64,000 bases of DNA from Candidatus Daviesbacteria bacterium (GCA_016176405.1 JACOXG010000013.1:398-64397), one strand, 5' to 3'. Positions 7,460 through 63,348 are shown, counted from the stretch's first letter. The notes: generated by a model not told the origin, from the sequence alone. A program made the numbers and translations.

Positions 7460-7479
7460 TCATTTGTTATACTTCAAGA

Positions 7480-8439: not shown

Positions 8440-10086
8440 TTGCTTTTACTAAATCAATCTATCCTTGAGGGTGGATTAAATGTTTTATCTGCCAATTTTT
8501 TAATTGGAGCAGGCTTAGGTCTAATTATGCATCATCTTTTATCCCGCCGCTATATTTTCTTTGAGAAATTGGAGAAAGATTTTATTATTAGACATGAAAC
8601 AAAAGTAGAAAGGCTACTAGAAATTTTTCCAGGAGCCTTTACTTGGCTGGCTCTCACCTCACCAATTTGGTTATCCTTTACTCTCCCTTTTGCTGTAGCC
8701 TATTTAATTTTAATTGCAGATACCTATTGGCTACTTACTGCCTTAAGAATTGGTATTTTGATATTAATTGGTTTTAGGAAAATGGAGGTGGCTAAAAAGC
8801 AAGATTGGTTATCTAATCTTAAAAAAGATTTCCCCAATGATTGGGGAAAATATTATCATTTAATACTAGTTCCCACCTATAAAGAAGCACCGTATATACT
8901 TACTACCACCTTCCAAGGAATTATTAATTCCAACTATCCTAAAGATAAAATTTTGCTGGCAGTCGGGTTTGAGGAAAGAGATGAGCCTAAAAAAATTAGA
9001 GATACCCAAAAAAATCTTAAAAAAATTGAAGGAAAAATTGTCGCAGTTTACACTACCATTCACCCTTATAACCTTCCTGGAGAAGTGGCTGGCCAAGGCT
9101 CAAATAAAAACTGGATGATCAAAAATATTGTCCCTCAGCTTAAAGCAAAAGGTATTAAGGTAGAAGATGTTTTTGTGACCACTTTAGATGCTGATTTTGT
9201 CCTACATCGGGAGTTTTTAGCAGGGGCTTTATATAAATACTTATCCCAACCAAACGAAAAAAGAGACAAAAGAACTTTTACTGGAGTATTTTTATATCAC
9301 AATAACTATTGGCAAACTCCAGCTCCGATGAGGCTGATGGCCACTGGTACTTCCTTTTGGCAACTGGCTGAGATGGTTGGTTCTGATAAATATATGAACT
9401 ACTCTTCGATGTCCATTTCTTTAAAAGCTCTCTTAGATGTGGGTGGCTGGATACCAGATAAGGTCAACGATGATAACGGGTTTTATTGGAAGGCCTATTT
9501 TCACTTTAATGGTGACTATAAAGTCATCCCACATTTTTTACCAATTTCTGCTGATGCAGTCCAAGATACCACCCTCCTTAAAACCTTTCAAAACCAATAT
9601 CTACAAATTAAAAGATGGGCTTATGGGGTTGAACATATCCCCTATGTGGTTACACAGTATTTTAAAAAAGAAATCGATTTTTGGGATAAAACTGATAAGT
9701 TACTTTTTAAAATTTGGGGGGATTTGAAATGGGGCTTTTTGGCAATCTTTGTAACATTCGGCAGTATCATTATTCCTTTAGTTAATCCTGATTTTAAAGA
9801 ATCTGTATTGTCTATTAATCTCCCAATAGTCTCGTCTTGGATATTAACAGCGGCATTTTTAGGGCTTTTTGCCACCATCTTTGTTCATGAAAAAACTGCT
9901 CCCAAAAGACCAAGAAATTGGTCGCCCTTTCAAAAAATATTTTCCTATATTCAGTGGCTTTTGGTACCAATTATTTTAATTACTATCTCATCCCTACCTG
10001 CCATTGATGCCCAAACCTCCTTAATGTTTGGTAAAAAATTGGAGTTTAGGGTAACCAATAAAGCGCGGTTATCAGAAAAAGTATAA
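8440..10086 (+). CDS. membrane glycosyltransferase, family 2-like (cellulose-synthase-like architecture)
   Basis: N- and C-terminal transmembrane blocks flank a cytoplasmic domain with GT-A-like features (ILLAVGFEERDEP, TTLDADFVL as a DxD-type motif, QIKRWAYG resembling QxxRW). Confidence 0.5.
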   Translation: MLLLNQSILEGGLNVLSANFLIGAGLGLIMHHLLSRRYIFFEKLEKDFIIRHETKVERLLEIFPGAFTWLALTSPIWLSFTLPFAVAYLILIADTYWLLTALRIGILILIGFRKMEVAKKQDWLSNLKKDFPNDWGKYYHLILVPTYKEAPYILTTTFQGIINSNYPKDKILLAVGFEERDEPKKIRDTQKNLKKIEGKIVAVYTTIHPYNLPGEVAGQGSNKNWMIKNIVPQLKAKGIKVEDVFVTTLDADFVLHREFLAGALYKYLSQPNEKRDKRTFTGVFLYHNNYWQTPAPMRLMATGTSFWQLAEMVGSDKYMNYSSMSISLKALLDVGGWIPDKVNDDNGFYWKAYFHFNGDYKVIPHFLPISADAVQDTTLLKTFQNQYLQIKRWAYGVEHIPYVVTQYFKKEIDFWDKTDKLLFKIWGDLKWGFLAIFVTFGSIIIPLVNPDFKESVLSINLPIVSSWILTAAFLGLFATIFVHEKTAPKRPRNWSPFQKIFSYIQWLLVPIILITISSLPAIDAQTSLMFGKKLEFRVTNKARLSEKV

Positions 10087-47572: not shown

Positions 47573-47749
47573 TTTTCCACTTAAAACTTCACTTTTCCAC
47601 AATTTATCCACTAAATAACCACCATTTTTTAACACGAAATAAAAACGAAAAATGAATATAAATTTTTCATTTTTCAACATATCCACAGGACATATTAATA
47701 ACTATTACTGTTTTAAATATGTAGTATAATCTAACCTCTCTGTGGATAA
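47573..47749. promoter_or_regulatory. oriC-like region: at least 5 DnaA-box matches plus an AT-rich unwinding-element-like stretch between dnaA and dnaN
   Basis: TTTTCCACA (47593-47601), TTATCCACT (47604-47612), ATATCCACA (47669-47677), TGTGGATAA (47741-47749), and an AT-rich aaataaaaacgaaaaatgaatataaatttttcatttttcaac. Confidence 0.6.
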
Positions 47750-48197
47750 TTTAAACTTAACCCTGATTGGTATAATTTTACTTCTTTTAATTATTGCTTA
47801 TCTTTTAGGTAGACTACAAGGAAGAGGTCCGCAAGATATCCCCTCGGATCTGATTGATTTGTACCGAGGAGTACAAGAATTACCAGCCAGAATTTTACAG
47901 GTAATTCAGGGCTCAATTAATCCTCAGAAAGGTAGAATGGCAGAGCTTTTAACTTATGCTGAACTGAGATATGATTATGATCGGATTATCCCTTTAGGTT
48001 GGCCAATTGACTTTATTGGTATTAAAAATGGTGATCGGATTGACTTTATTGAAGTCAAGAGCGGACAAACTCATCTCTTGACAGATGAAGAAAAACACAT
48101 TAAAAACCTAATTGCTACGGGAAGAGTCAATTTTAGACTAATTAAGGTTTCAGAGGAAGAAATCCAAAAGTTTGTTTCTGCCCAGAAAGGGGATTAG
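47742..48197 (+). CDS. hypothetical membrane-anchored protein with a PD-(D/E)XK-like core, located between dnaA and dnaN (GTG start)
   Basis: N-terminal TM helix, then DFIGIKNGDRIDFIEVKSG, a D..(D/E)xK nuclease-like motif. Confidence 0.35.
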   Translation: MDNLNLTLIGIILLLLIIAYLLGRLQGRGPQDIPSDLIDLYRGVQELPARILQVIQGSINPQKGRMAELLTYAELRYDYDRIIPLGWPIDFIGIKNGDRIDFIEVKSGQTHLLTDEEKHIKNLIATGRVNFRLIKVSEEEIQKFVSAQKGD

Positions 48198-49296: not shown

Positions 49297-49748
49297 AAGC
49301 CTCTAAATTTGACTGTTTTAAAATGGTAAATTTTTTCTTCACTTAATTTGCTACCATCCTCAAATTTGGTATCACCTAAAATAATTAAGGTGTATTCATA
49401 TCCCAACTCAAAGGGTTTGTCCGGAATAATTTTAACTGTCCTTTTATCCTCTGATAACTCCAAACTATATTCAATTTCAGGTTCAAGTCTGTGCTTAAAC
49501 TCACCAGTAAACGATAAGGATTTGTTAAAGGTGATTTCTATAATCTCATCAGAGGAAATAGTGGCATTATCCAAAGGATCTGGTTTGGTAGAAATGATTT
49601 CGGCAGATTCATCTTGGTTTGACTGTGGATTTATTTGATTCTGATTGGGTACACTAGATTGTTTATTATTTTGATTAATCCACCAAAAAATACCAGCTAG
49701 GACGGCTAATCCAATTACTAAAACCACGATTTTCTTGTTTACTTGCAT
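49293..49748 (-). CDS. membrane-anchored/secreted beta-rich protein, first gene-end of the T4SS-like cluster
   Basis: N-terminal TM/signal (IVVLVIGLAVLAGIFWWI), a Gln/Asn/Ser linker, and an Ig-like beta-rich C-terminus. Confidence 0.4.
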   Translation of the reverse strand: MQVNKKIVVLVIGLAVLAGIFWWINQNNKQSSVPNQNQINPQSNQDESAEIISTKPDPLDNATISSDEIIEITFNKSLSFTGEFKHRLEPEIEYSLELSEDKRTVKIIPDKPFELGYEYTLIILGDTKFEDGSKLSEEKIYHFKTVKFRGF

Positions 49749-51577
49749 AAGTTAAAGTATAGATCAGCCGGTTTAAATACTCCATCCTCCTGGATTGTGA
49801 CATGAACATGATCTGTATCTGCTAAATATTGACCTACAGGTGTGGCCGATTGAGCCGTCTGTCCCACTCTTAGGATGGGTGTAATATGTACAAATCTAAT
49901 TGTGTAGTTTTTAGTTTTGGCAGATAGAGCAAATCCGCCACCTTCATTTGTACTTATTGGTGTGCCGGATTCAATGATAGTCCAAGTGACTTGCTCGCCA
50001 TTTAAATAAGGCAAAAATACTGTTTTGTCAGAGCTCTGTAGATCAACAGCTGTTGATCTACCTGTCACATCAGGAGATGCGCAAGGATACTTTTGTTGGT
50101 ATTCTGCACTGCAATGGCCCCCAGGAGTGTCTTTTGAGCCAAGAGTAACGATGCCTCCATTAAGAGGACAACTAACTATCCCATTTCCTCCTCCTGGATT
50201 ATAGCCACTACTGGTTACTTGACAATTTTGGTAGTCTTGCCAGACCTCATTGCAATAACTGTAGCTGCCATAGTTGCAGCTATTGTAGTAGAGTCGGATG
50301 GCTGTATTGACCTGATCTTGAGTTGGCTGTTGAGTAATTCCGTTGGCTTTTAATTTCTCTGCTGCAATTGCCAAGCTGTTGGTAATACTACAAAGGTCTC
50401 CTTTACCTTGATTGTAAATGTCCAAAAGCTGCATCAACCCAACTGCTTGGGCAGTTCTGGCTCCTCTGGCAATTTCTTCAGCAGTACACGGATCATCTTT
50501 TTCAGGATTACTATGTAAAACCTGACCATTTAGCTCACAAAAGCTTTTAGCCTTCTGGCAATACTGATTAGATTTAATAGCATCATGATTATCATCAGCA
50601 TTAGCCACAAAATTGGCACTTTCATGCATGGCAATGCTTGCCAAAACTGCTGGAGCAGCTCCTGCATTGTTACCAGCTGCCACAATCCATCCTTGTAAAG
50701 TGGTGCTTTTAATAGGTAAAGAAGTGCCAGAACGGGTGAACTTGCAATTACTAATGTTAGTGACTGGTGTCACTCCGGCTTCAGACTCTTCTGTGGAAGT
50801 TAAAGGAACAGAAAATCCTGTCAGAAACAGTAGTGCCAAAAATGCTAAAATTATCCCCCAGACTACTTTTTTTGAAGAAGTTTTGGCCCAATTTACTCCT
50901 GGTGAATTGGGAAATCTGCTTAGAACATCGCCTATCCCCCCAATGAATCTGAAACCTCCGTTACCTACCCCACCTAAAACACCACCTAACCCACCGCCCA
51001 GTCTGCTGCCAAATTTTTTTATACCAATGCCTGTGGAAGAACCTAAGTTTTTGACCACCCGCTCACCCACCGCCACCCCACTTCTGTTGGCCACAGCTAG
51101 TTTGGAAGGAGCTGTTTCCTCTGGAGGAGGTTGAGGTGCTCGGGGTACAGTATGAACTATCCTGGGTACTCCAAAAGATCCGCCAGGCATAGGAGGGATA
51201 CCTCCAGCTGCTCCAGCCGCTTCAGCTGGAGGTGATGGTGGCAGGGTTTCTGCCTGCCCAGAAGGAATACCTTCTGCTGAGGCTGTAGGCTCTTCATAAA
51301 AAATTTGTTCCTCAGGTGTTTTGGCGCCTTTATTAATTTCTGTAATTAGTTCACTATTTTTTCTATAAAGGTCTCTGGTAAAAGCCTCAGCAAAATCCTG
51401 ATTGTCCCTGTATGCTAGATTATATTTTTGAAACTGATATCTGGCAGATGGGAAAATCTCCTTTTCAAAATCATATTCATAACCTTTGTAACGGAATTTA
51501 GTTTCTGAGGAATATCTTGGATTAGCTTTGCGCTCCAGAGCCAATGCCAAAAGTTTTTTGTCAGTTATTATTGCCAT
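49739..51577 (-). CDS. bitopic cell-wall hydrolase: SLT-family lytic transglycosylase domain + C-terminal M23 peptidase domain (VirB1/PrgK/TcpG-like role)
   Basis: Cytoplasmic N-terminus, Pro/Gly-rich linker, single TM (VVWGIILAFLALLFLTGF). SLT motifs: MHESANF (catalytic ES) and AVGLMQL. C-terminal M23-like region FVHITP...TDHVHVTIQEDG. Confidence 0.6.
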   Translation of the reverse strand: MAIITDKKLLALALERKANPRYSSETKFRYKGYEYDFEKEIFPSARYQFQKYNLAYRDNQDFAEAFTRDLYRKNSELITEINKGAKTPEEQIFYEEPTASAEGIPSGQAETLPPSPPAEAAGAAGGIPPMPGGSFGVPRIVHTVPRAPQPPPEETAPSKLAVANRSGVAVGERVVKNLGSSTGIGIKKFGSRLGGGLGGVLGGVGNGGFRFIGGIGDVLSRFPNSPGVNWAKTSSKKVVWGIILAFLALLFLTGFSVPLTSTEESEAGVTPVTNISNCKFTRSGTSLPIKSTTLQGWIVAAGNNAGAAPAVLASIAMHESANFVANADDNHDAIKSNQYCQKAKSFCELNGQVLHSNPEKDDPCTAEEIARGARTAQAVGLMQLLDIYNQGKGDLCSITNSLAIAAEKLKANGITQQPTQDQVNTAIRLYYNSCNYGSYSYCNEVWQDYQNCQVTSSGYNPGGGNGIVSCPLNGGIVTLGSKDTPGGHCSAEYQQKYPCASPDVTGRSTAVDLQSSDKTVFLPYLNGEQVTWTIIESGTPISTNEGGGFALSAKTKNYTIRFVHITPILRVGQTAQSATPVGQYLADTDHVHVTIQEDGVFKPADLYFNLCK

Positions 51578-51596: not shown

Positions 51597-53393
51597 TTAT
51601 GCATTTTGTCTTGCCAAAATTTCCTGTGGGCTGGATGTAATCAGCTCATGTTCTTTAGGGGAAGCCACTACGCTCATGGCTACATGGGTTGATCCGGCAA
51701 AAAATAGGCCTTGGCCTACCCCGGCTGATAATAGCAGTCTCTCCTCTCCTTCCGACAGATAAAAAACCTTAGATAACAGATCAATTGAGGCCGGAGCTTG
51801 TTTAAGTAGGACCTGGATAGATGAGTTGGAAATAATTTCTTTACCCCTCTCAGTTGCCAAAAAATCCTCCACATCTTGGGTTATGGTGGTTAGTCCCAGA
51901 TAGTATTTTCTGGCTCTTTTGGCCATATCCACCAAAAAGTTGGCTGAATCTTCATTTCTCATCAAATACCAGGCCTCATCCACAATTAAAATTCTTTTTT
52001 TGAGCTTAGTTCTGATTTTAGTCCAGACATAATCCAAAATCATATGGATGGCCAAAGGTCGGAGTTGATCAGCCAAATCCCGTACCGAAAAAACTGTGAA
52101 GGAGTTGGTTAAATTGATGTTGGATTGGGAAGAAAAAATGCCCATCAGGGAACCCCTGATAAATCTTTCCAATCTGGCAGCCAGCTCTATGGCTGGTCCC
52201 TCCTCCATGCCCACTAAAATTTTATAAAGATCCTCCATCAAAGGAGGCTGTCTATTTTGAGTTTTTGGATCATCGGTGATACCTTTAAGCTGATAAGTTT
52301 GCTTTAGGGCTCGATCCAAAATGGCACCTTCTGTGGCAGTTAGTTGTCCCAAGACCAATTTTAGAAAAGTAGTTAAAGACAAAATTTTTCGTCCCAGCTC
52401 ATTTTCTCCACTTATTTCTGCTGACATATCAAAGGGATTGATCTTAACCGGCGAAGATGAGGAAAAATTAATAAATTCTCCTCCCACTGCCTGAGCTAAA
52501 GGTAGATACTCTTGCTCAGGATCAATCACGATAATTTCTGTCCCAAACATCAAAGAACGTAGCGCTTCCAGCTTGACAAAGTAACTTTTCCCAGCACCGG
52601 ATTTAGCAAAAACCACCGAGTTGGCATTTTCCAAAGTAAACCTGTCAAATAAAATCAAAGAATCATTGTGAGCATTGATACCATACATAATGCCTTCATT
52701 AGCTGTGAGCTCCGATGAGGCAAAAGGAAAAGTGGTAGCCAAAGAGGTAGTATCCATGTTATGAGCCAGGTTAAGATAATCAACGCCGATGGGAATAGTT
52801 GATCTAAAACCATCTTCCATCTGTAAAGTGGTGGGTCGGGCAGTCATCGACAGGGAGGCAAAGGTTGATTCCACCAGTTTGGAGGTGTTATGGAGTTCTT
52901 CTTTAGATAAAGCAGGTACTGTGATGTATAAGGCAAACTGAAAAAATCTCTCCGCTCCTCTGACCAGTTGATCTTGTAAGGCCCTGGCATCTTCCAAAGC
53001 CACCTCAACTGCTGGATCAACAGCTCTGCCTCTTTCCAGATCTGTTTGGAGCGTTGCCTCCATCTCAGCAATCTTTCTTTTTAATTCATCCAAAACCCCA
53101 GCTGATTCTGAAGGATAAATGAACATGGAGATAAATAGGGAATGATCAAAGGAGATTAATGGTTCTAGCCAGTTTGGTTCCACAAATCTGGGGTAGTTTG
53201 ATACAAAGTAGCTTCTAAAGAAACGATCATTGATGTTGAGCTCATTAAAGTCCACCTCAATCTCTGCCGGGGCAATCACATCAGAGATGGTCAGTTGATC
53301 TTCCCTAGCCACTTCTTCTGGCTTGGTCTTTTTGAATAAACTCGATAATTTCACGTTTTTTGAATCCTTATCCCTCCAACTCCTCCACCACAA
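51597..53393 (-). CDS. VirB4/TraC/CagE-family type IV secretion ATPase
   Basis: Walker A FAKSGAGKSYFV, Walker B RILIVDEAWYLM, and the conserved VirB4 C-terminal region (GLTTITQDVEDF). Confidence 0.8.
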   Translation of the reverse strand: MWWRSWRDKDSKNVKLSSLFKKTKPEEVAREDQLTISDVIAPAEIEVDFNELNINDRFFRSYFVSNYPRFVEPNWLEPLISFDHSLFISMFIYPSESAGVLDELKRKIAEMEATLQTDLERGRAVDPAVEVALEDARALQDQLVRGAERFFQFALYITVPALSKEELHNTSKLVESTFASLSMTARPTTLQMEDGFRSTIPIGVDYLNLAHNMDTTSLATTFPFASSELTANEGIMYGINAHNDSLILFDRFTLENANSVVFAKSGAGKSYFVKLEALRSLMFGTEIIVIDPEQEYLPLAQAVGGEFINFSSSSPVKINPFDMSAEISGENELGRKILSLTTFLKLVLGQLTATEGAILDRALKQTYQLKGITDDPKTQNRQPPLMEDLYKILVGMEEGPAIELAARLERFIRGSLMGIFSSQSNINLTNSFTVFSVRDLADQLRPLAIHMILDYVWTKIRTKLKKRILIVDEAWYLMRNEDSANFLVDMAKRARKYYLGLTTITQDVEDFLATERGKEIISNSSIQVLLKQAPASIDLLSKVFYLSEGEERLLLSAGVGQGLFFAGSTHVAMSVVASPKEHELITSSPQEILARQNA

Positions 53394-54126
53394 ATGGGTG
53401 AGCTCTCGATGATTGGCTTCTAATTGGAGCTTGGTCTAATTTTGTTTCAGCTGCTATTTGAGAAACCTGGGCTGGTGTGACAGTTTCTAAAGGTTTGGGA
53501 GTACTCTTAGGCTCCTTTAAATTAACAGGCATGGTGGGTAAAGCTGGACTGGGTTTGGTACTGTAGTTGTAGATATTAAAAAAAACTTGTAAAAGTTTTT
53601 GGTTATCAAGCTGGGTGGCTTTCAAGCCGATTCTAGACAGCTGTCTCAAAATTTGATCTCGCCTGGGTAGTAGGACAGTTTTTATTTTTTGCTCCAGAGC
53701 TTGTTTTGAGGCAATCAGCCCCAGTTCCAATTTAAAAAGGGGCACCACTATATAAAATTTTTTATCTAAAACTTCATTTTCTTTGATGGTGGATTGGATA
53801 AATTGCCGGTAATGACTCATCATCTGAGATAACAGTTGGTTAGTTTGACTCTTTTGCGCCTTATTCAACAGCTCAAGATAGGATGAGATGTCCAATCTTT
53901 CTGAATCGATGACAATTTGGATACTAAAGGATAGGGAATTTAGCATTTGGGCAAAAGCATCAATGATGGCCATTTGCTCCCGGCCAGAAAGCAAACCAAA
54001 ATTAACAGCCGAAACTTGCAAAATTAAGGCTCCGCCACCACCTTTTAAAATGACGATTCCTTCCTGAATATCAGCTATGGGCAGATGATTTTGGGTGGTA
54101 TTCATGTTAGCTTTTAGCCACCACAT
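53368..54126 (-). CDS. hypothetical T4SS-associated protein (26-nt overlap with the VirB4 gene; possibly a detached VirB4 N-terminal module)
   Basis: 252 aa, no TM; coupled to the downstream ATPase gene by overlap. Confidence 0.35.
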   Translation of the reverse strand: MWWLKANMNTTQNHLPIADIQEGIVILKGGGGALILQVSAVNFGLLSGREQMAIIDAFAQMLNSLSFSIQIVIDSERLDISSYLELLNKAQKSQTNQLLSQMMSHYRQFIQSTIKENEVLDKKFYIVVPLFKLELGLIASKQALEQKIKTVLLPRRDQILRQLSRIGLKATQLDNQKLLQVFFNIYNYSTKPSPALPTMPVNLKEPKSTPKPLETVTPAQVSQIAAETKLDQAPIRSQSSRAHPFVVEELEG

Positions 54127-55183
54127 TAATGGGTGGTAAAACAGAACCTGTCAGTTCAATCTGTAATACATCAAAGGCAAAATTTTCCTTCTCCAGCTCC
54201 AGAGTGTAGATGCCATTAGGCAAAGGAGTAGAGCCACTAAATTGACCTAATTTGTTAGTTTTTAAGGCTCTGACTGGTAGACCCTCTTTGTCATAGATGA
54301 CTGCCACCACTCCTTCTAAATAATTGCCCACTGTATCTTTGACCACCCCATTAATCACATTAGGAAAAGTAGTCAGGGCCACCTGAGCAATCTTTGGTCT
54401 AATTGGGATGACTACCTTAACTTTTTCCTTAGGTGGCTCTTTTTCCGAAGGTTCCGGAGGCCCGGAAACATTTTCCAGTTTTTCCTTGACCGCCGATGCT
54501 TGAGTGATCATGTTTTTTAAATCAGCCAGGATCTTATTGACTTGCTGGCTGTAATCAACTGGTATGGGAGTAGGTTTGGTAGCTTCAGCCCTAATTTGTC
54601 CTAAAGTTCTTTCTGTCTGAATAATTTTTAGCTGTAAATCTTGAGCCTGTTTGGCCAAGTCAACTGTTTTTTGCAACTCTTCGCCGGTGGGCAGTTGGGA
54701 GACAGGTTTAGAGAGCTGAGGAGTTGGTGGAGTAGGTTCTTCGGGCACCTTTTTCATCTGAGGACCGGAAGTAAAAACTAACAATCGGCTGCCAAAAAGA
54801 GGATCTTCAAAATAGCTTTTACCTGCTCTTATCCAAGATCTTTTGGTGGGAGAATAGATGGCTTTAATGAAGGCTGCAAACCAGTGATCAAGGGGTCTAG
54901 ATCCTATTGGTAAAAAAGCAAAAGCTACTCCTGAAAGGGCCGATAAAACAATCAAAGGCCAAGCCAGATAAGGGTAAGGAGCGGCTAAAAAGACAAACAT
55001 TAAATAGGCCAAACCAACACCGGTTGCCAGGTAAAGAAACTGTTTTAAAGTCATATCCCCAATCAGCCTAAACTGAAATGAGGTGACATTTTGTGGAATA
55101 GGATGTGGTTCCATGACTATAAGGTATGCTACAGCGTGAAAAATTACAGGTAAAGAGGTACAAAGTAGGTCATTTAAGGGCAA
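54107..55183 (-). CDS. T4SS-associated membrane protein: VirB3-like two-TM N-terminus + C-terminal carboxypeptidase-regulatory-like beta-sandwich domain
   Basis: TM pair (FLYLATGVGLAYLMFVFLAAP / LIVLSALSGVAFAFLPI), a Pro/Glu/Lys linker, and a C-terminal GVVKDTVGNYLEGVVAVIYDKEG..NGIYTLEL CarbopepD_reg-like region. Confidence 0.4.
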   Translation of the reverse strand: MPLNDLLCTSLPVIFHAVAYLIVMEPHPIPQNVTSFQFRLIGDMTLKQFLYLATGVGLAYLMFVFLAAPYPYLAWPLIVLSALSGVAFAFLPIGSRPLDHWFAAFIKAIYSPTKRSWIRAGKSYFEDPLFGSRLLVFTSGPQMKKVPEEPTPPTPQLSKPVSQLPTGEELQKTVDLAKQAQDLQLKIIQTERTLGQIRAEATKPTPIPVDYSQQVNKILADLKNMITQASAVKEKLENVSGPPEPSEKEPPKEKVKVVIPIRPKIAQVALTTFPNVINGVVKDTVGNYLEGVVAVIYDKEGLPVRALKTNKLGQFSGSTPLPNGIYTLELEKENFAFDVLQIELTGSVLPPINVVAKS

Positions 55184-55315: not shown

Positions 55316-55480
55316 AAAGGGAATCCAGTGTAAATCTGGAGTCCATGAAGTGGATCGCTTAGCGATCACTTCAGGACCATGAAGTGAACTTTGCTCTACT
55401 TCATGGCTGTGCCGCAACTGTTAAAGCCAGGAGACCGACCACTCCGCCATCTGGCGGATTCTTTCCCGAGCAGGAGCAAT

Positions 55481-56782
55481 ATGCCAGTTGAAACCTTAGA
55501 ATCATCATATATTCCTCCACCTGAAATAGCCGAAATTGCCATCCCAGAAGTCTTTGTAGAGGCTTTTAGAGAAGAGCCTTCACCTTTAGAATTAAGATCA
55601 ACCAAAGTATCTGAAAGACAGTGGTATTTGTTGCCTGGAACAGGATTTGATGTTAGGGGGCAAATTAATAAACTGATCAGAAGTTTAAATTCTCACTTGG
55701 ATGGGAAAAATCAAGCACAAGTAGTGAGTGAATTTGTCGAAGATACAGCTGAAGATATGAGACATTTTGTAATTGAGTATCCCTTGCAAAGATTAGTTTT
55801 CCCTATTTTTTTAGATCTTAGACAAGGTGGAGTCAGAAAATTAATCGCCCCCCGCTATAGTAACCAGACTTATTCAGATTTGATTTCTTCACAAGAAAGA
55901 AGAGGATCTGTTAAAAGTTCAGTTCTTAGAATAGAGAGCCTGATGATTGATGCTCCTGAGGGTACTATCGCTGGATTCATCAGTCCTCCGGGCTGGACAG
56001 ATCTAGAGGATAGACAAGGAGGGAAGATTGAGTTTGTTGATAATCAAATTTACCTGTATAAAAAGACTAAGACCGGGTTAGAGGCAAGAACAGTTAGGAC
56101 TGATCTAACTTTGGAGCAAAGCGAATTATTACTAGAACAGCTCAACTTCACAAGGGAGAATCCTCCTAATTTACATACCCCGGAAGAAAGAATTATGACA
56201 GTGGTGGAAAGCGTTTTTTACTTACAAGGTCAGACCTTTGAAACTGTGGTGGATCTTATAAAAACAACCAAAGGTAGTGAGCTCGCTTATAAGGACAGAT
56301 CTTTTGAGGAGATTTATTATGATTTGAGTTTGGGTGATGATCTTTTGGACTTTAATTTGGATGTCCAAAAGTATGCTGAGCCAATCATTGAACAGTTTAA
56401 ACTTTTGGCTAGGAACAAATTGGTATATATTTCAGATCAAACTTTAGATGAGCTAGAAATGGAGTTGGGAAAAGCCATATTAAGAATACATAAAGCAATT
56501 AAGAGCAGACATTCTTCTGATGAAATGATTAGACCTATTCCCTATATGACAGAAACAGATTTTAAGAGAGAACTGGTACAACTGCAGGTAATACCAGGAT
56601 GTAATGGAGGAAGCTGTAGACGTTTTATTATAACAGCTTCTGGTGGTGTTAGAGAACTGGTAGGTAATTCAAAGTCCATATCCCCAGATTTTTATGAGTA
56701 TTGTCCTGCTTGTGATGAGGAAATTAATTGTACTGTTAAGGTTGGTCAATCATGCCCCAAATGTAATAAAGTCAGAATGTAA
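55481..56782 (+). CDS. hypothetical protein with a C-terminal multi-Cys zinc-ribbon-like module
   Basis: The ATG at 55481 has AGGAG 5 nt upstream; the ORF-track start at 55391 lacks an RBS and overlaps a GC hairpin. The C-terminus reads CNGGSC...CPACDEEINC...CPKCNK. Confidence 0.45.
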   Translation: MPVETLESSYIPPPEIAEIAIPEVFVEAFREEPSPLELRSTKVSERQWYLLPGTGFDVRGQINKLIRSLNSHLDGKNQAQVVSEFVEDTAEDMRHFVIEYPLQRLVFPIFLDLRQGGVRKLIAPRYSNQTYSDLISSQERRGSVKSSVLRIESLMIDAPEGTIAGFISPPGWTDLEDRQGGKIEFVDNQIYLYKKTKTGLEARTVRTDLTLEQSELLLEQLNFTRENPPNLHTPEERIMTVVESVFYLQGQTFETVVDLIKTTKGSELAYKDRSFEEIYYDLSLGDDLLDFNLDVQKYAEPIIEQFKLLARNKLVYISDQTLDELEMELGKAILRIHKAIKSRHSSDEMIRPIPYMTETDFKRELVQLQVIPGCNGGSCRRFIITASGGVRELVGNSKSISPDFYEYCPACDEEINCTVKVGQSCPKCNKVRM

Positions 56783-56863
56783 ATTGTAAATAAACTTTAG
56801 TTAAATTCATCCCAATACCGTCAGGATTATATCAGGATTTAATCAAGCACTTAATTCCGATTT

Positions 56864-56930
56864 ATTGTTAAATTGCTTCATTGTTATATTGTCTTAAAAA
56901 ACAATTTAACAGTTTAACAATATAACAATT
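56864..56930. promoter_or_regulatory. nested inverted repeats (TTGTTAAATTG / TTGTTATATTG ... CAATTTAACA / CAATATAACAA) upstream of a TTGACA-N18-TACACT promoter and GGAAAGG RBS for the giant gene
   Basis: Palindromes read directly from the sequence; a -35-like TTGACA at 56943-56948. Confidence 0.5.
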
Positions 56931-57003
56931 TTATTTGTTGAAGTTGACACTTAGGTTTCCAAGGCTCTACACTAATTAAGGTAGGCCTTGTGGAAAGGCT
57001 TAC

Positions 57004-60000
57004 ATGTCTAATGCTGAAAGATTAAATATGGCAGATGCTATTGCAACAGAAACAGCTGAGCCAAAAGTAGTGGTTACTTCTGAGAAAGACAGCTACCAAA
57101 AAGGCGGCATAATGAGGTGGCTTAAAAGAGGTTCAAAGGCTCAAGTTTTGATGAAACCAGGTGAATTTGAACCTCCCACAGCAACTCAAGATTCTCAAAT
57201 TGAGAATGTGCATGCTCGGAATCAACAAGCAGCTGAGACATCTTCCAAGAGAGAACATATCCTAAAATTACCTGGTTATGATCCAAATAAAGAATATGAG
57301 ATTAGAGAATTGGGGAATGCTGTAATTATTGTTGATCCAGTAACAGGGAAAGAGATAGGTATATTACCAAGAATTGCTGGAGGTAGCCCGGATATACCAG
57401 ATTGGATTACTGAAGCAGCCAAGAGTAAGCCTTTGAGGTTACAGGAAGCTCAAGAGCTTGATCAAATTTATTCAAGGGTTGATCGTTCTAGACTTCCTGG
57501 GCATCAGGTTGGTGAATTAGACCGCATGATTCAGGCAAATCAGAATGAACTCAATACCCTTCAGAGAGAGGTAGAGCAACTGTTTGAAGAAGCAAGCAAT
57601 GACAATATCTTGAATTTTGTCATAAATGATGTAAGAGCTGCTTACATTAAAGCCATTCAACCACCGCCAGCTTCCATTTGGGAAGCGCAACCTCCAACAG
57701 GCCGAGAAATTGATTTGAAAAATTATCAGGAAACATTTTGGGATTTAGGATACGATGTTTTGCGCGATTTATTTTTAAGGGGGGCGGTCGGACCTATTGA
57801 CATAAGAGCGTTACGAGCAAAGTATGAAGGTTTGGGCAGTTATATAGCCTCAAGAGCGGCTGTAGCTATTGATAAGGATTTAAAAGGATTACCATTATCA
57901 CCATCGACTGAGTTAGGAGATCGTATTCTTGAGGGTGTCAAAAGGGAACATGAATATGCAGAAAGCAGAAGAAGAGCAAGAGCCAGTGCTGATGAGATGC
58001 TTAGATATAGTGACTGGAGAGAACGCTTTGATTTTGACTGGGCTCAAAATAGGCCGGAGTTGAGAGCCTCAGTTTTTGCCTGGCTGGAGAAATTTGTTGC
58101 CCATTTACCAGAAGCAACAATAGATGAACTTAACAATGAATCACTGACTTGGAAGCGTAATGCTATCAGTGCTCTGGAAAAAGCTGCCAATAGGCTACGA
58201 ATTTCAGAAAAAGAACCTTTTTACAAAGAACTTAAAAGTACTATTGAAGCATATGTTGAAGTATATCGAGGAGCAAAGTTTTTGGAAACTGATGGTGGGC
58301 TTGAGGCGGCTACAATTGCCTTGGAAGAATTTGCCCATAATTTTAATCCTAAACATGATGCAATATATTTAGGTAATGCTAAATCTGCCATTATTCAAGC
58401 CTTTATGGCTAGAAATCATGGGGCCATATCCGCTAGCACCGTACCCATCACAAGAGATACCGCTCCTACGGGCGCAGCCATTGAAACTATTGAGAAACCT
58501 CAGGCAGGAGACTTGGAAGAGTTTAGAGGTAATATAGAAGAGCAAGCAAAACAATATGCAGCCACTCACCAGTTATATATCAGGGAAGCTGATTTTGAAA
58601 CAAGAATTAGACAAAGTAACGGGGGTTATAGTTGGGATGATGTTATCGAAGACTTATTACTCGAAGATAGAAGGGGTATGAATGCCGCTAATGCTTTAAC
58701 AGACCCGATTGCTCAAGCTGAAGCTATAGCCAGAGTAGTAACCAGAACAGGTGTTTTCCAAAGAATTAAAGAAAGGTTGGATAGAGAAGATGAAGCGAGA
58801 GATGGAAGAAGCTTTGCCGAACTCACAGATGATGAAAGAAGAGAAGAGATTAGGTTTAGGATCAGAACAAAGATGTTTCTGACAGGATATAGAAATCTGG
58901 TAGACGACATTGATCTTACCACAGATCCGGTAGACAAAGACAGGAAATTATGGAATTGGCTAAAAGGATACAACCTAAGAAGAGAAATCCAGGGTCATAC
59001 GTTGTTTTTCCCCAGCTACTGGGATGAAGTCAGATTAAGCATAAATAGACCAACCAAATTAGTAGATAGGGCTCTCCAAGAAATCAATAAAGCTGAACAA
59101 ATGAGGAGATTGAATCCCATTCAAGCAGAAGCCATCCGAAACAGTATCAAAAACGAAATGAGAGCTAGAGGGGCGGATAAAGAAGTTGACAGAATTGAAT
59201 CCTTAATAAGTCCGCTTAATAGAGACAAGGCTTTATGGAGATGGGTTGATAAGTATAATGCAGCCAGAAAAGACCGTGGGGAGGAACCTTGGTATGCCGG
59301 TGATTGGGATAGAGCTCTACCTGAAGACGAGCTTGAGGCCATGATTGAGGAAGTAGATCCTTTTAGAGGGGTATTACGCATTGATGGCTTAACAGATCAA
59401 GAGATTAATACAGCCATAGAAAATCTTAATTGGACAGATCCCGCACAACCCAATTTTATTGGAAGTGGATTAACTGCTGAACAAATTGAAACAGCCAAGA
59501 GAGAAATGTTGGAAGATGCTTTATTTGATAAACAACAACGAGAAACTGAGGCTGAACGAGCTTACAATATTAACAGAGCTTACCAGAAATTCTTAGGAAT
59601 TGATGCCAGATGGGGTGGTATGTCTATAAGGGAGATTAATGATGAGGGAGAGATGTTCCTGAAAAATGTCTGGGAGAAAGCTGAAGAAATATTGAAGGAG
59701 AAGATTGATAATGAGGAAGAAGAAACAGAAGAAAAAGTAGCTGCCCTTGAAGCAGCTTTAAGAGCCAGAGGGGGTTTAACAGATGCTGAGATAGAGACAA
59801 CTCTCATTGAAAGAAGAAGGTTATTAAGAAGGGATTCCACATTCGGAGCCACCTTGGCGCTTAGGGAAATAGGCATTGCTAATGATTTACCCATTTGGAA
59901 TTACTATTACTATAACGACCCTCAACGTATTCAAACTTTTGCTCCCTTGGTGGGATATACACATAATGATAAACCACAAATAATCGATCTTTTGGACAGA

Positions 60001-61419
60001 GGCAGAAGGGAAATGAGAGCGGTTTGGGATTATCTGGCAGATACTTACATGGATGGTAGAGTCTTGATAGTCAGAGATGAGCCGAATGCTGATGTTAATG
60101 AAAATGGTCAGCCAAAAGACTTTCATCAAGAAAGATGGGATCGGGCCAGGGTCATTAATGAGGCTGGAGTACAAGCCCTAAGAGAAGTATTTGAATCAAG
60201 ATTTATGTTGTCAACTAGCGGAGGGATAGAAGTAGTAGATTTAATCTCTAAGATAGGAGACTTAGGCATATATGATTTGCTTTGGGAAATGGGTTGTAAG
60301 GATTTTAGGGAATTTCAGGGATTTATTAAAAGACGAGATGAAGTGGAACTTAGAAGACAAAGTTTTTGGAATATTAGAGAATGGAGAGATCCCATTTCTT
60401 ATGCTAAAAGACTAAGAGGTGGAGGTGGAGCAATAGTATATCTTCGAGGAGGAGAGGTAAAAGGGCAACAACGTGAGCCAGGCGTACTTCAGGAACCGAT
60501 GATGGGTGCTTATAAATTTAGAGATGAATATGTGAATCGAGAGCATTGGGTAAGTAGTGACATAAGGAATAAACTAGATCAGACTACTGCGGAGTTTAGG
60601 AGAATACTCCAAGAGATAATTAATAATGACCAGAACCTAAGCAAACTTACTGAACAGGAGCGAGATAAACTGATAGAGGTAGGAGCAGGAGTGTTAATTA
60701 CCCTTATAAAATTCATGGATGCCCTGAGGTATAAGATGAATAGAGCCGGACTGGCTCCTAAAAACTGGAAATTAGACAATGAGCTGAACTTCAGACATTA
60801 TGCTGTGGAGTTATTAAAAAGGGTGTCAATTGAAGGCCGAGCAGCTATCTTAGGTGGCGGTGAAAAATTAGGGGAGCAAGATTTAGGTTATGCTGTACAA
60901 GGTAGAAGTCCACTGACTATTAAGATATTCGAAAATTTTTTCAGAACCAGCTCCTACCATATCTTAGTAGAAAAAGATCGTAAAGTTTTTGATCAGATGG
61001 GACAAGAGGTTAAAGCCAGGATGGATACTAAAAGAAGAGAGCTAGATGCTCAACCCTTGCCTGTCGCAATTCAAACAAAAATTAATAATAGGAGAAATCG
61101 TTTAAGAGCCTTGGGTATGGGTACAAGGATAGATAGATTAATAAATCGGGGAGTACTTTCACAATCAGAAATTGATTCATTAACAGATATTCATTTACGA
61201 TTCGAAATGGACAACAAAAGAAAAGAGGAGTTGAAGTCTAGAGGGGTACCTGATGAAGAAATAGATTCATTTCTTAATTTAAACCAAGAGCTTCGGAGAA
61301 TGAGGAATCAATACATAAATGAAGAGCTCCATAGGCAGTTTTATGGGGAATGGTCTGCTAAATTGGCAGAAGTTGCCGAGCAGTTAGAGAAGGTCGGATC
61401 GTATAAACTTGGGGTGTAA
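57004..61419 (+). CDS. giant (1471 aa) highly charged Glu/Arg/Asp-rich hypothetical protein, no signal peptide or TM, no motif I recognise
   Basis: A single uninterrupted ORF with a strong RBS; no Walker or HUH motif recognised; embedded in the T4SS-like cluster. Confidence 0.6.
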   Translation: MSNAERLNMADAIATETAEPKVVVTSEKDSYQKGGIMRWLKRGSKAQVLMKPGEFEPPTATQDSQIENVHARNQQAAETSSKREHILKLPGYDPNKEYEIRELGNAVIIVDPVTGKEIGILPRIAGGSPDIPDWITEAAKSKPLRLQEAQELDQIYSRVDRSRLPGHQVGELDRMIQANQNELNTLQREVEQLFEEASNDNILNFVINDVRAAYIKAIQPPPASIWEAQPPTGREIDLKNYQETFWDLGYDVLRDLFLRGAVGPIDIRALRAKYEGLGSYIASRAAVAIDKDLKGLPLSPSTELGDRILEGVKREHEYAESRRRARASADEMLRYSDWRERFDFDWAQNRPELRASVFAWLEKFVAHLPEATIDELNNESLTWKRNAISALEKAANRLRISEKEPFYKELKSTIEAYVEVYRGAKFLETDGGLEAATIALEEFAHNFNPKHDAIYLGNAKSAIIQAFMARNHGAISASTVPITRDTAPTGAAIETIEKPQAGDLEEFRGNIEEQAKQYAATHQLYIREADFETRIRQSNGGYSWDDVIEDLLLEDRRGMNAANALTDPIAQAEAIARVVTRTGVFQRIKERLDREDEARDGRSFAELTDDERREEIRFRIRTKMFLTGYRNLVDDIDLTTDPVDKDRKLWNWLKGYNLRREIQGHTLFFPSYWDEVRLSINRPTKLVDRALQEINKAEQMRRLNPIQAEAIRNSIKNEMRARGADKEVDRIESLISPLNRDKALWRWVDKYNAARKDRGEEPWYAGDWDRALPEDELEAMIEEVDPFRGVLRIDGLTDQEINTAIENLNWTDPAQPNFIGSGLTAEQIETAKREMLEDALFDKQQRETEAERAYNINRAYQKFLGIDARWGGMSIREINDEGEMFLKNVWEKAEEILKEKIDNEEEETEEKVAALEAALRARGGLTDAEIETTLIERRRLLRRDSTFGATLALREIGIANDLPIWNYYYYNDPQRIQTFAPLVGYTHNDKPQIIDLLDRGRREMRAVWDYLADTYMDGRVLIVRDEPNADVNENGQPKDFHQERWDRARVINEAGVQALREVFESRFMLSTSGGIEVVDLISKIGDLGIYDLLWEMGCKDFREFQGFIKRRDEVELRRQSFWNIREWRDPISYAKRLRGGGGAIVYLRGGEVKGQQREPGVLQEPMMGAYKFRDEYVNREHWVSSDIRNKLDQTTAEFRRILQEIINNDQNLSKLTEQERDKLIEVGAGVLITLIKFMDALRYKMNRAGLAPKNWKLDNELNFRHYAVELLKRVSIEGRAAILGGGEKLGEQDLGYAVQGRSPLTIKIFENFFRTSSYHILVEKDRKVFDQMGQEVKARMDTKRRELDAQPLPVAIQTKINNRRNRLRALGMGTRIDRLINRGVLSQSEIDSLTDIHLRFEMDNKRKEELKSRGVPDEEIDSFLNLNQELRRMRNQYINEELHRQFYGEWSAKLAEVAEQLEKVGSYKLGV

Positions 61420-61433
61420 TTTAAGGATGAATA

Positions 61434-63212
61434 CTAAGGTTTTTTGAGCCTCCACTTCAAAGGATTCCAGGTAGAAGCACTTCTATCTATAGCTTGAAAT
61501 ACCCCAGGTCTAACAGGGCCATACTCAAATCCTCCCGTAGAGGGATCGAAACGATATCCATACTCTCCAAAAATACCCCTCTTTATATTTCCTGAAGCTT
61601 CTGTGACAGCACCAGTTGACTGCCCATAATATGTTCGACCGCTTGCTACACCACCGGAAATTTCCTGTCCTAGAAATTGTCCTGCCTGACCCATTCTACC
61701 AATAGTACTAACTACAATGTCTGGAATTTTGGGAAGTGCCATTAATGCCCCAAAAGCCAAAAGAAGATTAATGAAATTTAAATCCAATCCTCCAAGCAAT
61801 GGAAATGTCTTTTCACCTGTGATTTGAGTATTAGTTTGGGCGGAAACAATAAAACTATTGTTATCTACATAGTTTGATTGTGAAATTTTTAAGGGATAGT
61901 CATTTTTTACAATGCCCGGACCTAAAAGAAAGGCCACAAAATAAAATACCGCCAAAACTGCAGGGAATACTAATATATTTGCCAACATATTTAATATCCA
62001 GGCAGTTGCTATACCTTGCCTTCCTGGTAAGGCTGCTGCCAGAAATTGGAAGGGAGCACTTATTGTCAGAAAGATAATCGTCAAGTAGGTTGTTAGAAGC
62101 CTAAGCAATAACTTTAACATCTGGTAAATTAAGGCCAAGGTTGCTACAAAGCTAATAATGAACCCTAAAAAGAATGTGGGGGCGCCTGCCCCAGCCCCGA
62201 TTGCTATTAAACTAACGGCGGGACCTAAAAATAGACTAAGAGGACCCAGAGCGGCAGGTACACCTCCTGCCAAAGGTGCTATGAGGTGAGCGGATAAGAG
62301 TCCTGCTACTATTCTTAAGGTACCTTGAGCATCGCCTAATTTATCCCAAACAGATCCTAAAGCCTCAGATGCTCTCTCTTGTGTGACTATTCCTACAAGG
62401 GGGCTAAATATAGATAAAACATTCTCTCTGGAGATTTTATTGACCAAATTTGTTCTTTCTGGGTCATCTGTTTTTCCTTGGGCAGCGGCAAAATAATAAC
62501 CTACCATATTTGTTCCCACAAAGGCCATATCTGAAACCAGGCCTGCTAAGAAATAACTAAAGGTAATTAAAATTAATCCAATCACCAATCCTGGTAGAGC
62601 TGCCTGAGCAGTAATGACTGTTTGAGGATTAATTCTTTGTCTAAACATCACCATTAGCCCAATAATCACAAAAATAATGGTCATAATTACATAAGAGATA
62701 TTTCTGGATACCTGCCATAAGGCTAAAATAGGACGTAATACTCCCTCTCCGGATCCTACCACTTGAGCATTAACCTGTTTCACTACTCTAAACTGATCTC
62801 CAAAGGAAGCCAGGTAATCAACAGTTCTAACAGGCGGATTCATGTATAAAGCTGTAATTAAAGAGGTGGTTGTTCCCAAAGCTCCGTTAGATAAATTGGT
62901 TTGGGATAAAATAGGAACTCCCTGAATTGCTCCTTGCGCATTTTTAGTGATCTGATAAGTCAAACATGGTTGGCCGATAAAGGAAGAGCCAACAGTTAGA
63001 CAGGAAAAAGTATGAAACATGTTGTGGACTAAAAGATCTGTATAAAGGGGGGAGGTAGGAGAGATAGAGGTGGGAAGTTGGAGGTTGGAAGATGGATATT
63101 GAGGTGGGAAGTTGGAGGTTGGAAGAGCACTGGGAGTAGCAGTTTGAGCATTAGCAATGGGAATATTAAATATTAAATAGCAAATAGTAAATAATGCCAG
63201 TACCACTGTCAT
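61434..63212 (-). CDS. VirB6/TrbL-like polytopic membrane protein with an N-terminal signal peptide and a Pro/Ser/Thr-rich extracellular segment
   Basis: Likely start at MTVVLALFTICYLIFNIPIANA|Q (signal peptide); the ORF track extends to 63308 through a repeat-element copy. At least 8 TM helices arranged as in VirB6/TrbL; sits next to the pilin-like and VirB4 genes. Confidence 0.5.
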   Translation of the reverse strand: MTVVLALFTICYLIFNIPIANAQTATPSALPTSNFPPQYPSSNLQLPTSISPTSPLYTDLLVHNMFHTFSCLTVGSSFIGQPCLTYQITKNAQGAIQGVPILSQTNLSNGALGTTTSLITALYMNPPVRTVDYLASFGDQFRVVKQVNAQVVGSGEGVLRPILALWQVSRNISYVIMTIIFVIIGLMVMFRQRINPQTVITAQAALPGLVIGLILITFSYFLAGLVSDMAFVGTNMVGYYFAAAQGKTDDPERTNLVNKISRENVLSIFSPLVGIVTQERASEALGSVWDKLGDAQGTLRIVAGLLSAHLIAPLAGGVPAALGPLSLFLGPAVSLIAIGAGAGAPTFFLGFIISFVATLALIYQMLKLLLRLLTTYLTIIFLTISAPFQFLAAALPGRQGIATAWILNMLANILVFPAVLAVFYFVAFLLGPGIVKNDYPLKISQSNYVDNNSFIVSAQTNTQITGEKTFPLLGGLDLNFINLLLAFGALMALPKIPDIVVSTIGRMGQAGQFLGQEISGGVASGRTYYGQSTGAVTEASGNIKRGIFGEYGYRFDPSTGGFEYGPVRPGVFQAIDRSASTWNPLKWRLKKP

Positions 63213-63233
63213 CCTGAGCGCAGCGAAGGATCT
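63208..63233 (+). repeat. copy of the dispersed repeat overlapping the start codon of the VirB6-like gene
   Basis: gtcatcctgagcgcagcgaaggatct. Confidence 0.55.
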
Positions 63234-63348
63234 CAATATTAATCTAGAGATTCTTCGGCCTTTGGCCTCAGAATGACACTTTATGTCAGTTTTGAGTTTG
63301 GACAACATACTTTAAGAGTAAACTAAATAAGCTGTAAATGTCAAAGAT

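Follow-up and report, generated by a model that had tools for sequence, protein, structure and literature searches.

This locus raises the question of what role is played by a very large soluble protein, belonging to no known family, whose gene sits within a type IV secretion system (T4SS) cluster. The gene occupies positions 57004 to 61419 of a 64,000-nucleotide stretch of DNA (the window) from Candidatus Daviesbacteria bacterium (GCA_016176405.1, JACOXG010000013.1:398-64397), a lineage of the Microgenomates group of Patescibacteria. Our preferred answer, to which we assign a probability of roughly 0.4 and which we therefore put forward tentatively, is that the giant protein may be a T4SS-dedicated, diversifying substrate or effector. 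We favour it because the gene holds a fixed slot beside the secretion genes, because it has diversified at the level of whole types in a manner decoupled from the machinery, and because members of different types share a short N-terminal module (N-module).

The giant gene and its slot beside the secretion genes

The giant gene is real and intact. The initial annotation had described a single 4.4-kb open reading frame (ORF), and this description holds:

57004..61419, + strand: giant gene, a member of type 1 as defined below, single ATG ORF of 1471 amino acids (aa)

Its product matches NCBI 'hypothetical protein HYS94_03385' from Candidatus Daviesbacteria bacterium at 100% identity. A word-indexed search returned 13 full-length homologues (best high-scoring-pair identity 28-61%), and 1.84 billion cluster representatives, searched exhaustively with a profile, yielded 52 related clusters, 39 of them below 1e-30, with most of these matches measuring about 1,000-1,700 aa. 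Scanning GTDB genomes with the family patterns recovered one locus, in the same genome as locus L001 of the comparison that follows. Roughly 40 full-length relatives come from independent assemblies, which refutes the possibility that the ORF is an assembly artefact merging several genes.

The genomic setting of the gene was compared across 14 loci, recovered partly through the giant protein itself and partly through its more widespread VirB6-like neighbour. All 14 carry a gene of 1,250-1,650 aa without a Pfam match that is convergent to the VirB6-like gene, with one giant gene per slot at every locus and a conserved size range. Co-occurrence with T4SS genes, which had been proposed as a check, is borne out by this adjacency to the VirB6-like gene at 14 of 14 loci. 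On contigs that reach far enough, the giant gene is followed by a zinc-ribbon protein of ~300-520 aa and then by PrgI-TrsD-VirB4, an order from which L016 differs. The occupants of the slot fall into at least three types:

Type 1: window, L001, L003, L004, L005, L007, L008, L009 and L016; 940-1434 bits against the A4 family hidden Markov model (HMM)
Type 1, very distant: L014; 92 bits against the A4 HMM, a bridging member
Type 2: L010 and L011; 32% mutual identity
Type 3: L012 and L015; 50% mutual identity

BLASTP finds no match linking these types, and the type-1 motifs (STSGG, RGRR and the rest, described below) are absent from types 2 and 3. The machinery encoded on either side behaves differently, as protein identities to the window illustrate:

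L001: VirB4 84%, VirB6-like 62%, giant protein 61%
L009: VirB4 81%, VirB6-like 61%, giant protein 24%
L010: VirB4 79%, VirB6-like 60%, giant protein without detectable match

The flanking machinery genes keep 50-84% identity; where the giant protein drops to 24% or can no longer be detected, VirB4, TrsD, PrgI, the VirB6-like protein and the pilins too are still 56-84% identical. On these comparisons the giant gene diverges in a way that is decoupled from the machinery.

Near its N-terminus the giant protein carries a short segment that recurs in members of different types:

57259..57408, + strand: N-module, YDPNKEY…VDPVTGKE…RIAGGSPDIPDW, residues 86-135 (alignment A8)

The core of this module spans ~45 aa with the pattern YDP…DPxTGKE…GG. 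Across the DNA of all the loci collected, an HMM built on alignment A8 gives strong matches only to the giant genes of the window, L001/L002/L006, L004, L009, L010 and L012, with one further, weak match (19.9 bits) on the short contig L013, so that the module is found in type 1 (window, L001, L004, L009), type 2 (L010) and type 3 (L012). Between L009 and L010 the N-modules share 59% protein identity and the bodies do not align; at the DNA level, the sole similarity inside the giant gene is a stretch of 159 nt, at 75% identity, lying over the N-module. This patchy distribution of the module suggests recombination of the sort that is usual for cargo but not for core parts.

A body without known family or fold

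Conservation in the family alignment spans from about residue 236 to the C-terminus, and three regions can be distinguished in the window protein:

57709..59103, + strand: N-terminal half of the body, conserved and alpha-helical, residues 236-700
59104..59328, + strand: window-only insertion, residues 701-775, occupancy 0.02 across 47 sequences
59329..61416, + strand: C-terminal body, a compact alpha/beta domain with a confident model, residues 776-1471

The insertion is absent from all 46 other aligned family members. Within it, residues 727-769 duplicate residues 632-674, constituting a tandem second copy of a 43-aa 'KDxxLWxWxxxYN…WD' unit (local alignment score 86, z = 12.5 against shuffles); self-BLAST of the giant protein detected no internal repeats, and this copy emerged only by targeted alignment. 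The most conserved motifs lie in the C-terminal body: ARWGG (868-872), RGRR (999-1002), STSGG (1070-1074), KRRDE (1109-1113) and NRAGLAPKNW (1246-1255). STSGG, RGRR and KRRDE are nearly invariant within type 1 (40-47 sequences), where K990, R1001, R1002, R1049, STSGG and R1110 make up an invariant Arg/Lys core with a Ser/Thr/Gly loop.

An AlphaFold2 model of residues 776-1471, computed from a 40-sequence alignment, reaches a predicted local distance difference test (pLDDT) score of 86.5 and a predicted template modelling (pTM) score of 0.85, and consists of helices of at most 40 aa and beta hairpins that are compactly packed. The heptad-like runs originally read from the sequence correspond to the longer helices (up to 40 aa) of this compact model. 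An extended coiled-coil or SMC-like scaffold was rejected on the same grounds, together with the lack of any SMC or coiled-coil Pfam match. The N-terminal half yields a low-confidence, helical model for which structure searches return generic helical-hairpin matches alone.

Neither the giant protein nor 34 of its distant relatives match a Pfam, NCBIfam, PHROGs or PADLOC family above noise. PDB sequences give no match, whether queried with the single sequence or with a 47-sequence profile, and a fold search of the PDB with the C-terminal model finds no structural relative and no T4SS component. A literature search found no description of such a protein. The giant protein thus belongs to no known family and has no solved fold. 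Its initial description as a protein of unknown function has withstood these searches, with no housekeeping family matched and no merger of several genes apparent in the ORF.

Charged residues make up 32% of the protein (E 10.4%, R 9.7%, D 7.0%, K 5.3%), and its isoelectric point (pI) is 5.4; Glu, Arg and Asp are indeed prominent, but calling the protein extremely rich in them was an overstatement. Hydropathy and transmembrane (TM) scans reveal no N-terminal hydrophobic signal or signal peptide and no convincing TM segment, the peak 19-residue Kyte-Doolittle score of 1.74 (residues 1223-1241) being borderline and falling inside a helix of the compact model. A regular-expression search for Walker A, HUH, HxH, HExxH and DEAD motifs is likewise empty, in agreement with what had first been reported on all three counts. 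Since signal peptide and TM segment are both lacking, any export of the protein must begin in the cytoplasm.

Neighbouring genes and the upstream region

Between 34 and 64 kb, the window encodes leuS, ribosomal protein L25, cell-envelope polysaccharide genes, jag/khpB, yidC, rnpA, dnaA and dnaN, with a G+C content of 32-43%. This gene content, together with the identity to a Daviesbacteria protein, establishes the locus as the origin-proximal chromosome of an ultrasmall candidate phyla radiation (CPR) bacterium. The genes nearest to the giant gene are the following:

49739..51577, - strand: bitopic 612-aa protein, TM segment 238-256, directly downstream of VirB4
51597..53393, - strand: VirB4 ATPase, 598-aa P-loop protein, CD1110-type (390 bits)
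53368..54126, - strand: TrsD-like VirB4 N-terminal paralogue of 252 aa (TrsD/TraC-like)
54107..55183, - strand: PrgI/VirB3-like, core T4SS
55391..56782, + strand: zinc-ribbon partner gene, ~460 aa, soluble, co-oriented with and upstream of the giant gene
61434..63308, - strand: polytopic membrane protein of 624 aa, VirB6-like candidate (TM scan)

The placement of the giant gene in a T4SS-like cluster is upheld by PrgI/VirB3, TrsD-like, VirB4, VirB2-type pilins and the polytopic VirB6-like protein. The giant gene itself lies on the strand opposite to the T4SS genes flanking it on both sides. The TrsD-like and VirB4 ORFs overlap by 26 nt, and separate genes for the two likewise occur in L001, L003, L009, L010, L014 and L015; because this two-gene arrangement recurs in relatives, it represents the normal Patescibacterial TrsD and VirB4 pair and not a frameshift. 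The VirB6-like candidate is NCBI HYS94_03390, annotated there at 590 aa; it is Pfam-negative and has more than 345 homologues, mostly in Daviesbacteria and Microgenomates. VirB2-type pilins lie beside it, on the side convergent with the giant gene. No coupling protein (VirD4-like) or relaxase was found among the scanned window genes, which comprise those of 34-64 kb plus, from the first 34 kb, the larger ORFs.

The zinc-ribbon protein has a C-terminal CxxC…CxxC and no Pfam match. Its homologues are found in L001, L003, L004, L005, L009 and L010, the last of which has a type-2 giant gene. With identities of 24-36% its evolution is very fast, and its relationships do not track the giant-gene types. 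The 612-aa bitopic protein may, from its sequence, be a VirB1-like cell-wall hydrolase analogue. It has no Pfam match and no tblastn match in the compared parts of other loci, and beyond it lie a Big_5 protein and then dnaN.

Four side observations concern this neighbourhood. The C-terminus of the 612-aa protein, '…DHVHV…', resembles an M23/LytM-type metallopeptidase motif. A 151-aa endonuclease related to Holliday-junction resolvases (Endonuc_Holl, E = 8e-9) is encoded between dnaA and dnaN at 47742-48197 (+). In L016, a Fic-domain gene of 395 aa (6836-8023, -) separates the VirB6-like gene from the pilin array, as an insertion, and it may be another cargo candidate in the cluster because Fic enzymes are commonly secreted effectors. 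Finally, the assembly containing L001/L006 (GCA_964649615.1, CAZYPW010000001.1) is titled 'uncultured Gammaproteobacteria bacterium' and carries a Daviesbacteria-type dnaN-T4SS-giant-gene locus whose VirB4 is 84% identical to that of the window, so that the label looks wrong.

The accessible part of the survey by Quinonero-Coronel et al. (2025, PMC12102498) describes the Patescibacterial T4SS cluster as mating-pair formation (MPF)-FATA-like, located beside dnaA/dnaN and comprising TrsD and VirB4, PrgI and pilin arrays, with no relaxase. It adds that the type IV coupling protein (T4CP) is rarely near virB4 in Patescibacteria, allows for 'very different relaxases', and ascribes the scarcity of VirB6 homologues in Microgenomatia to sequence divergence, which fits the Pfam-negative polytopic neighbour found here. 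With the systems of that survey and of Wang et al. (2023, PMC10633639) the window shares VirB4 and a separate TrsD-like gene, PrgI/VirB3, VirB2-type pilins, the lack of a relaxase and the dnaA/dnaN site. According to the portions available of these and a related report, the Saccharibacterium Southlakia epibionticum, the one genetically tractable species, cannot grow as an epibiont without its T4SS (Wang et al. 2023, PMC10633639; PMC12857230), Patescibacterial T4SS have been proposed to serve protein export or some other role, and the neighbouring pilin arrays are hypervariable (PMC10633639, PMC12102498, PMC12857230). The components listed in the accessible part of PMC12102498 include VirB1/2/3/4/6/8, TrsD, T4CP, PrgF and others, with unassigned neighbours coloured grey, and a giant soluble protein is not described in the available sections of PMC12102498, PMC10633639 or PMC12857230.

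Upstream of the giant gene, the following elements were identified:

56818..56849, + strand: conserved noncoding element CCGTCAGGATTATATCAGGATTTAATCAAGCA, the sole upstream part conserved across loci
56864..56929: imperfect 66-bp dyad with five TTGTTAWATTG copies, two direct and three inverted
56944..56973, + strand: sigma-70-type promoter TTGACA-18-TACACT for the giant gene
56992..56998, + strand: Shine-Dalgarno-like GGAAAGG, 5 nt before ATG 57004
57028..57039, + strand: second in-frame ATG (M9, 'MADA'), with A-D/E-G/A following; the conserved 'MAEG' tag

The initial annotation correctly recognised the GGAAAGG ribosome-binding site and the TTGACA promoter, with a -35 and a -10 that L001, L004 and L005 share; GAAAGG(A) occupies a like position in L001, L005 and L007. 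M9 and A10 are invariant in an 8-locus alignment, and 'M-A-E/D-G' is common to most family members, either at the extreme N-terminus, with some members starting directly at MAEG, MPEG or MPDG, or behind a short extension. GAAAGA precedes the second ATG in most loci, and the codons of the short extension themselves spell this Shine-Dalgarno-like GAAAGA. The start codon is therefore ambiguous: the M9 position is the family-conserved one, and ATG 57028 may be the true start in the window.

The dyad contains exact TTGTTAWATTG copies at 56865, 56881 and 56918(-) and copies with one mismatch at 56902(-) and 56910(-); elsewhere in the window the 11-mer occurs at chance rate. The repeats first described as nested perfect inverted repeats are real, but they are interleaved in the order A B A' B' and form an imperfect dyad, the right arm of which has an 8-bp periodicity. 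Its RNA fold (-16.5 kcal/mol, z = -3.6) is non-random. The suggestion that it serves as a palindromic operator fares poorly: its near end lies 15 bp upstream of the -35, clear of the promoter, none of the related loci compared carries it in the corresponding intergenic region, and no regulator gene is adjacent to it, the adjacent scanned genes showing no helix-turn-helix (HTH) or other DNA-binding Pfam match. The distance from the conserved element to the -35 is 94 nt in the window, the extra DNA being the dyad, versus 40 nt in L001, and the dyad looks, by this comparison, like a local insertion rather than a conserved operator. We also considered an intrinsic terminator of the upstream gene, a reading that agrees with the AT-rich sequence, the stability of the fold and the T-rich run after it but not with the lack of conservation. 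A relic of a toxin-antitoxin (TA) operator was rejected, the dyad not resembling the promoter region of the L001 TA module, and Rfam returns sub-threshold chance matches alone for the upstream region.

The conserved element of ~30 bp follows the pattern CRTCAGGATTWW…AG..TTWAATCAAGCA, with 23 invariant columns in eight copies from seven genomes, and holds AGGATT/AGAATT direct repeats about 11 bp apart. Copies outside the window are located as follows:

L001 ~9860-9891, L004 ~2308-2339, L005 ~2172-2203
L009 ~16747 (-), L010 ~16244 (-), L011 ~18553 and ~17881 (-)

The element is present also where the giant protein is unrecognisable, including loci with type-2 giant genes, and in L011 a ParE-type TA cassette has a copy on either side. 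It could be where a regulator binds or else a site associated with insertions, and its conservation makes it a better candidate regulatory site than the palindrome.

As a further observation, the intergenic slot between the zinc-ribbon and giant genes is an insertion hotspot for TA modules and further small mobile modules, namely Phd/PIN, MazE/PIN, HicAB, RelB, ParE, AbiEii, 23S_rRNA_IVP and AAA_14/DUF4143. Its inserts are located as follows:

L001 9051-9847, L003 4497-5813, L004 1691-2300, L005 1688-2080
L009 16486-17493, L010 16317-16876, L011 16429-21810, L015 14896-15740

The content differs in nearly every genome, and among these loci the window alone has no insert, having the AT-rich dyad instead.

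Substrate, machine component or other role

In the reading that we prefer, a lineage-restricted giant protein made in the cytoplasm would be dedicated to the MPF-FATA-like T4SS of Daviesbacteria and related Microgenomates, and the T4SS/pilus apparatus would export it toward a host cell. The N-terminal tag and module would be recognised by the machine itself or by the zinc-ribbon partner, acting as adaptor or chaperone, and the large body, with its Arg/Lys-rich core and STSGG loop, would carry an activity exerted outside the producer cell. Diversification would then represent adaptation to different hosts, parallel to that of the variable VirB2 pilin arrays. Transcription could proceed from the gene's own conserved sigma-70-type promoter, with no need for the window-only palindromic array. 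Invariable linkage to the T4SS and the lack of a Sec signal are both in keeping with a substrate. Among the roles initially suggested for the protein, those of secreted substrate or effector and of cytoplasmic scaffold are still viable, but positive evidence for a relaxase stand-in did not emerge.

Several observations weigh against a secreted substrate. Classical T4SS signals are C-terminal, not N-terminal, and here the last 30 residues have a net charge of 0, no basic tail or motif is conserved across types, and no BID or XVIPCD domain is matched by Pfam in the giant protein. The N-module is missing in L003, L005, L007, L008, L011, L014, L015 and L016, and is therefore not a universal signal, and the 'MAEG' tag may owe something to the context of translation initiation and not to the function of the protein. 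Pfam and PADLOC searches with all types turned up neither a known toxin or enzyme domain nor a gene resembling an immunity gene; the zinc-ribbon protein, the sole constant partner of the giant protein, does not co-vary with its type. A single copy, an invariant slot and a conserved size are also expected of a structural component. Profile comparison with hhalign gives a probability of 60% between types 1 and 2, of 94% between types 2 and 3, and of 5% between L012 and type 1, so that the types may constitute one hyperdivergent superfamily and not swapped cassettes.

The rival that survives best, which we consider doubtful, makes the giant protein a cytoplasmic part of the T4SS itself, structural or adaptor-like. 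It might be a lineage-specific platform that docks on VirB4, TrsD or the VirB6-like protein and takes over the missing coupling-protein or recruitment function. This reading would attribute the fast evolution of the giant protein to a tendency typical of these bacteria. A component of this kind would account for one copy of 1,250-1,650 aa in the same slot at 14 of 14 loci, for the strong conservation of the type-1 core (STSGG, RGRR, KRRDE), for solubility without an export signal and for the lack of a VirD4-like coupling protein among the scanned window genes, and the hhalign hints of remote homology would make the types descendants of one ancestral component. Subunits that touch conserved partners, however, normally co-evolve with them at similar rates, and here the rates are discordant; nor does the giant protein possess an ATPase motif or structural similarity to the T4SS components in the PDB, and the patchy N-module suggests recombination.

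The substrate reading can also be cast in a bolder form, which we regard as unlikely in its entirety: the giant proteins would be polymorphic effectors of orphan fold, the N-module (MAEG tag and YDP…DPxTGKE…GG) would be a new recruitment signal read by the zinc-ribbon protein, the types would track host range, and these would be the first T4SS cargoes.

That the protein might instead process nucleic acids for a T4SS substrate, as a relaxase substitute or as an RNA/DNA handling factor, strikes us as improbable. TraI-type relaxases are similar in size to the giant protein, and its Arg/Lys and Ser/Thr/Gly core would be compatible with phosphate or nucleic-acid binding. The part of the T4SS survey accessible to us also describes Patescibacterial clusters without recognisable relaxases (PMC12102498). 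The protein, however, contains no HUH, nuclease or relaxase motif, searches of Pfam and NCBIfam with it and with 34 relatives return no family of relaxases, Rep proteins, primases, helicases or nucleases, no such fold was matched, and its overall pI is acidic. No oriT-like conserved repeat was found, the sole inverted-repeat array (56864-56929) being window-specific, and sister genomes are not expected to swap enzymes of this kind for types that BLAST cannot relate. A chromosomal passenger with no connection to the T4SS, occupying, for example, a variable island or defence hotspot between T4SS operons, is least probable of all because, even with the giant gene and its zinc-ribbon partner on the strand opposite to the flanking T4SS genes and with TA modules and small insertions accumulating between the two, linkage to the VirB6-like gene is invariant where giant proteins no longer resemble each other, the TA modules change by locus while the giant gene is always there, and PADLOC and PHROG searches return no match.

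Among known systems, the relaxases (TraI/TrwC, MOB families) and VirD4 resemble the giant protein in being large and soluble (the relaxases) or T4SS-linked, and in being made in the cytoplasm, and they are the very components 'missing' from the cluster. Both identities were rejected. For an HUH/MOB relaxase, the giant protein has no histidine triad or catalytic Tyr motif and no relaxase family match, and the locus has no conserved oriT; for a VirD4-type coupling protein, it has no TM anchor, no Walker A/B, no T4SS-DNA_transf/TraG match and no fold match.

A closer analogue may be CagA of Helicobacter pylori, a soluble, narrow-lineage protein of more than 1,100 aa that is encoded in a T4SS island, is highly polymorphic, has a co-encoded partner, CagF, and needs a C-terminal signal. 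The likeness would reside in a large, soluble, lineage-restricted protein encoded in a T4SS locus together with a cytoplasmic partner. The giant protein, however, bears no sequence or fold similarity to CagA, which is not among the PDB matches; the host would be a bacterium here and is a eukaryote there. Polymorphic effector architectures built around a trafficking module offer a second parallel, with X-Tfe/XVIPCD in the Xanthomonas T4SS, LXG in the type VII secretion system (T7SS), and MIX, Rhs and PAAR in the type VI secretion system (T6SS). Much as in those architectures, some of the giant proteins combine a short conserved module with long bodies that BLASTP does not align, at a fixed locus beside the secretion genes, and similarity ends right after the module in the manner of a recombination boundary. 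They differ in that their module is N-terminal (XVIPCD is C-terminal) and absent from many members, in having no known toxin domain or immunity gene, and in that their bodies may be remote homologues. T4SS toxins with a 'VirD4-binding domain' are mentioned in PMC12419801.

The kind of protein outlined here, a T4SS-dedicated accessory or cargo, is familiar; its sequence, its fold, its N-module and its type-level polymorphism are new. The families are confined to an uncultivated lineage, and every functional step is one that we infer. The analysis supplies defined families, a confidently modelled and expressible domain of 700 residues and a short N-module that can be tested for binding, and the giant protein is a concrete candidate for a role in an essential T4SS, whether as its cargo or as a cytoplasmic part that is missing from it. 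If the polymorphic-effector reading is true, the giant proteins would be the first identified cargoes of a secretion system that epibionts need on their hosts.

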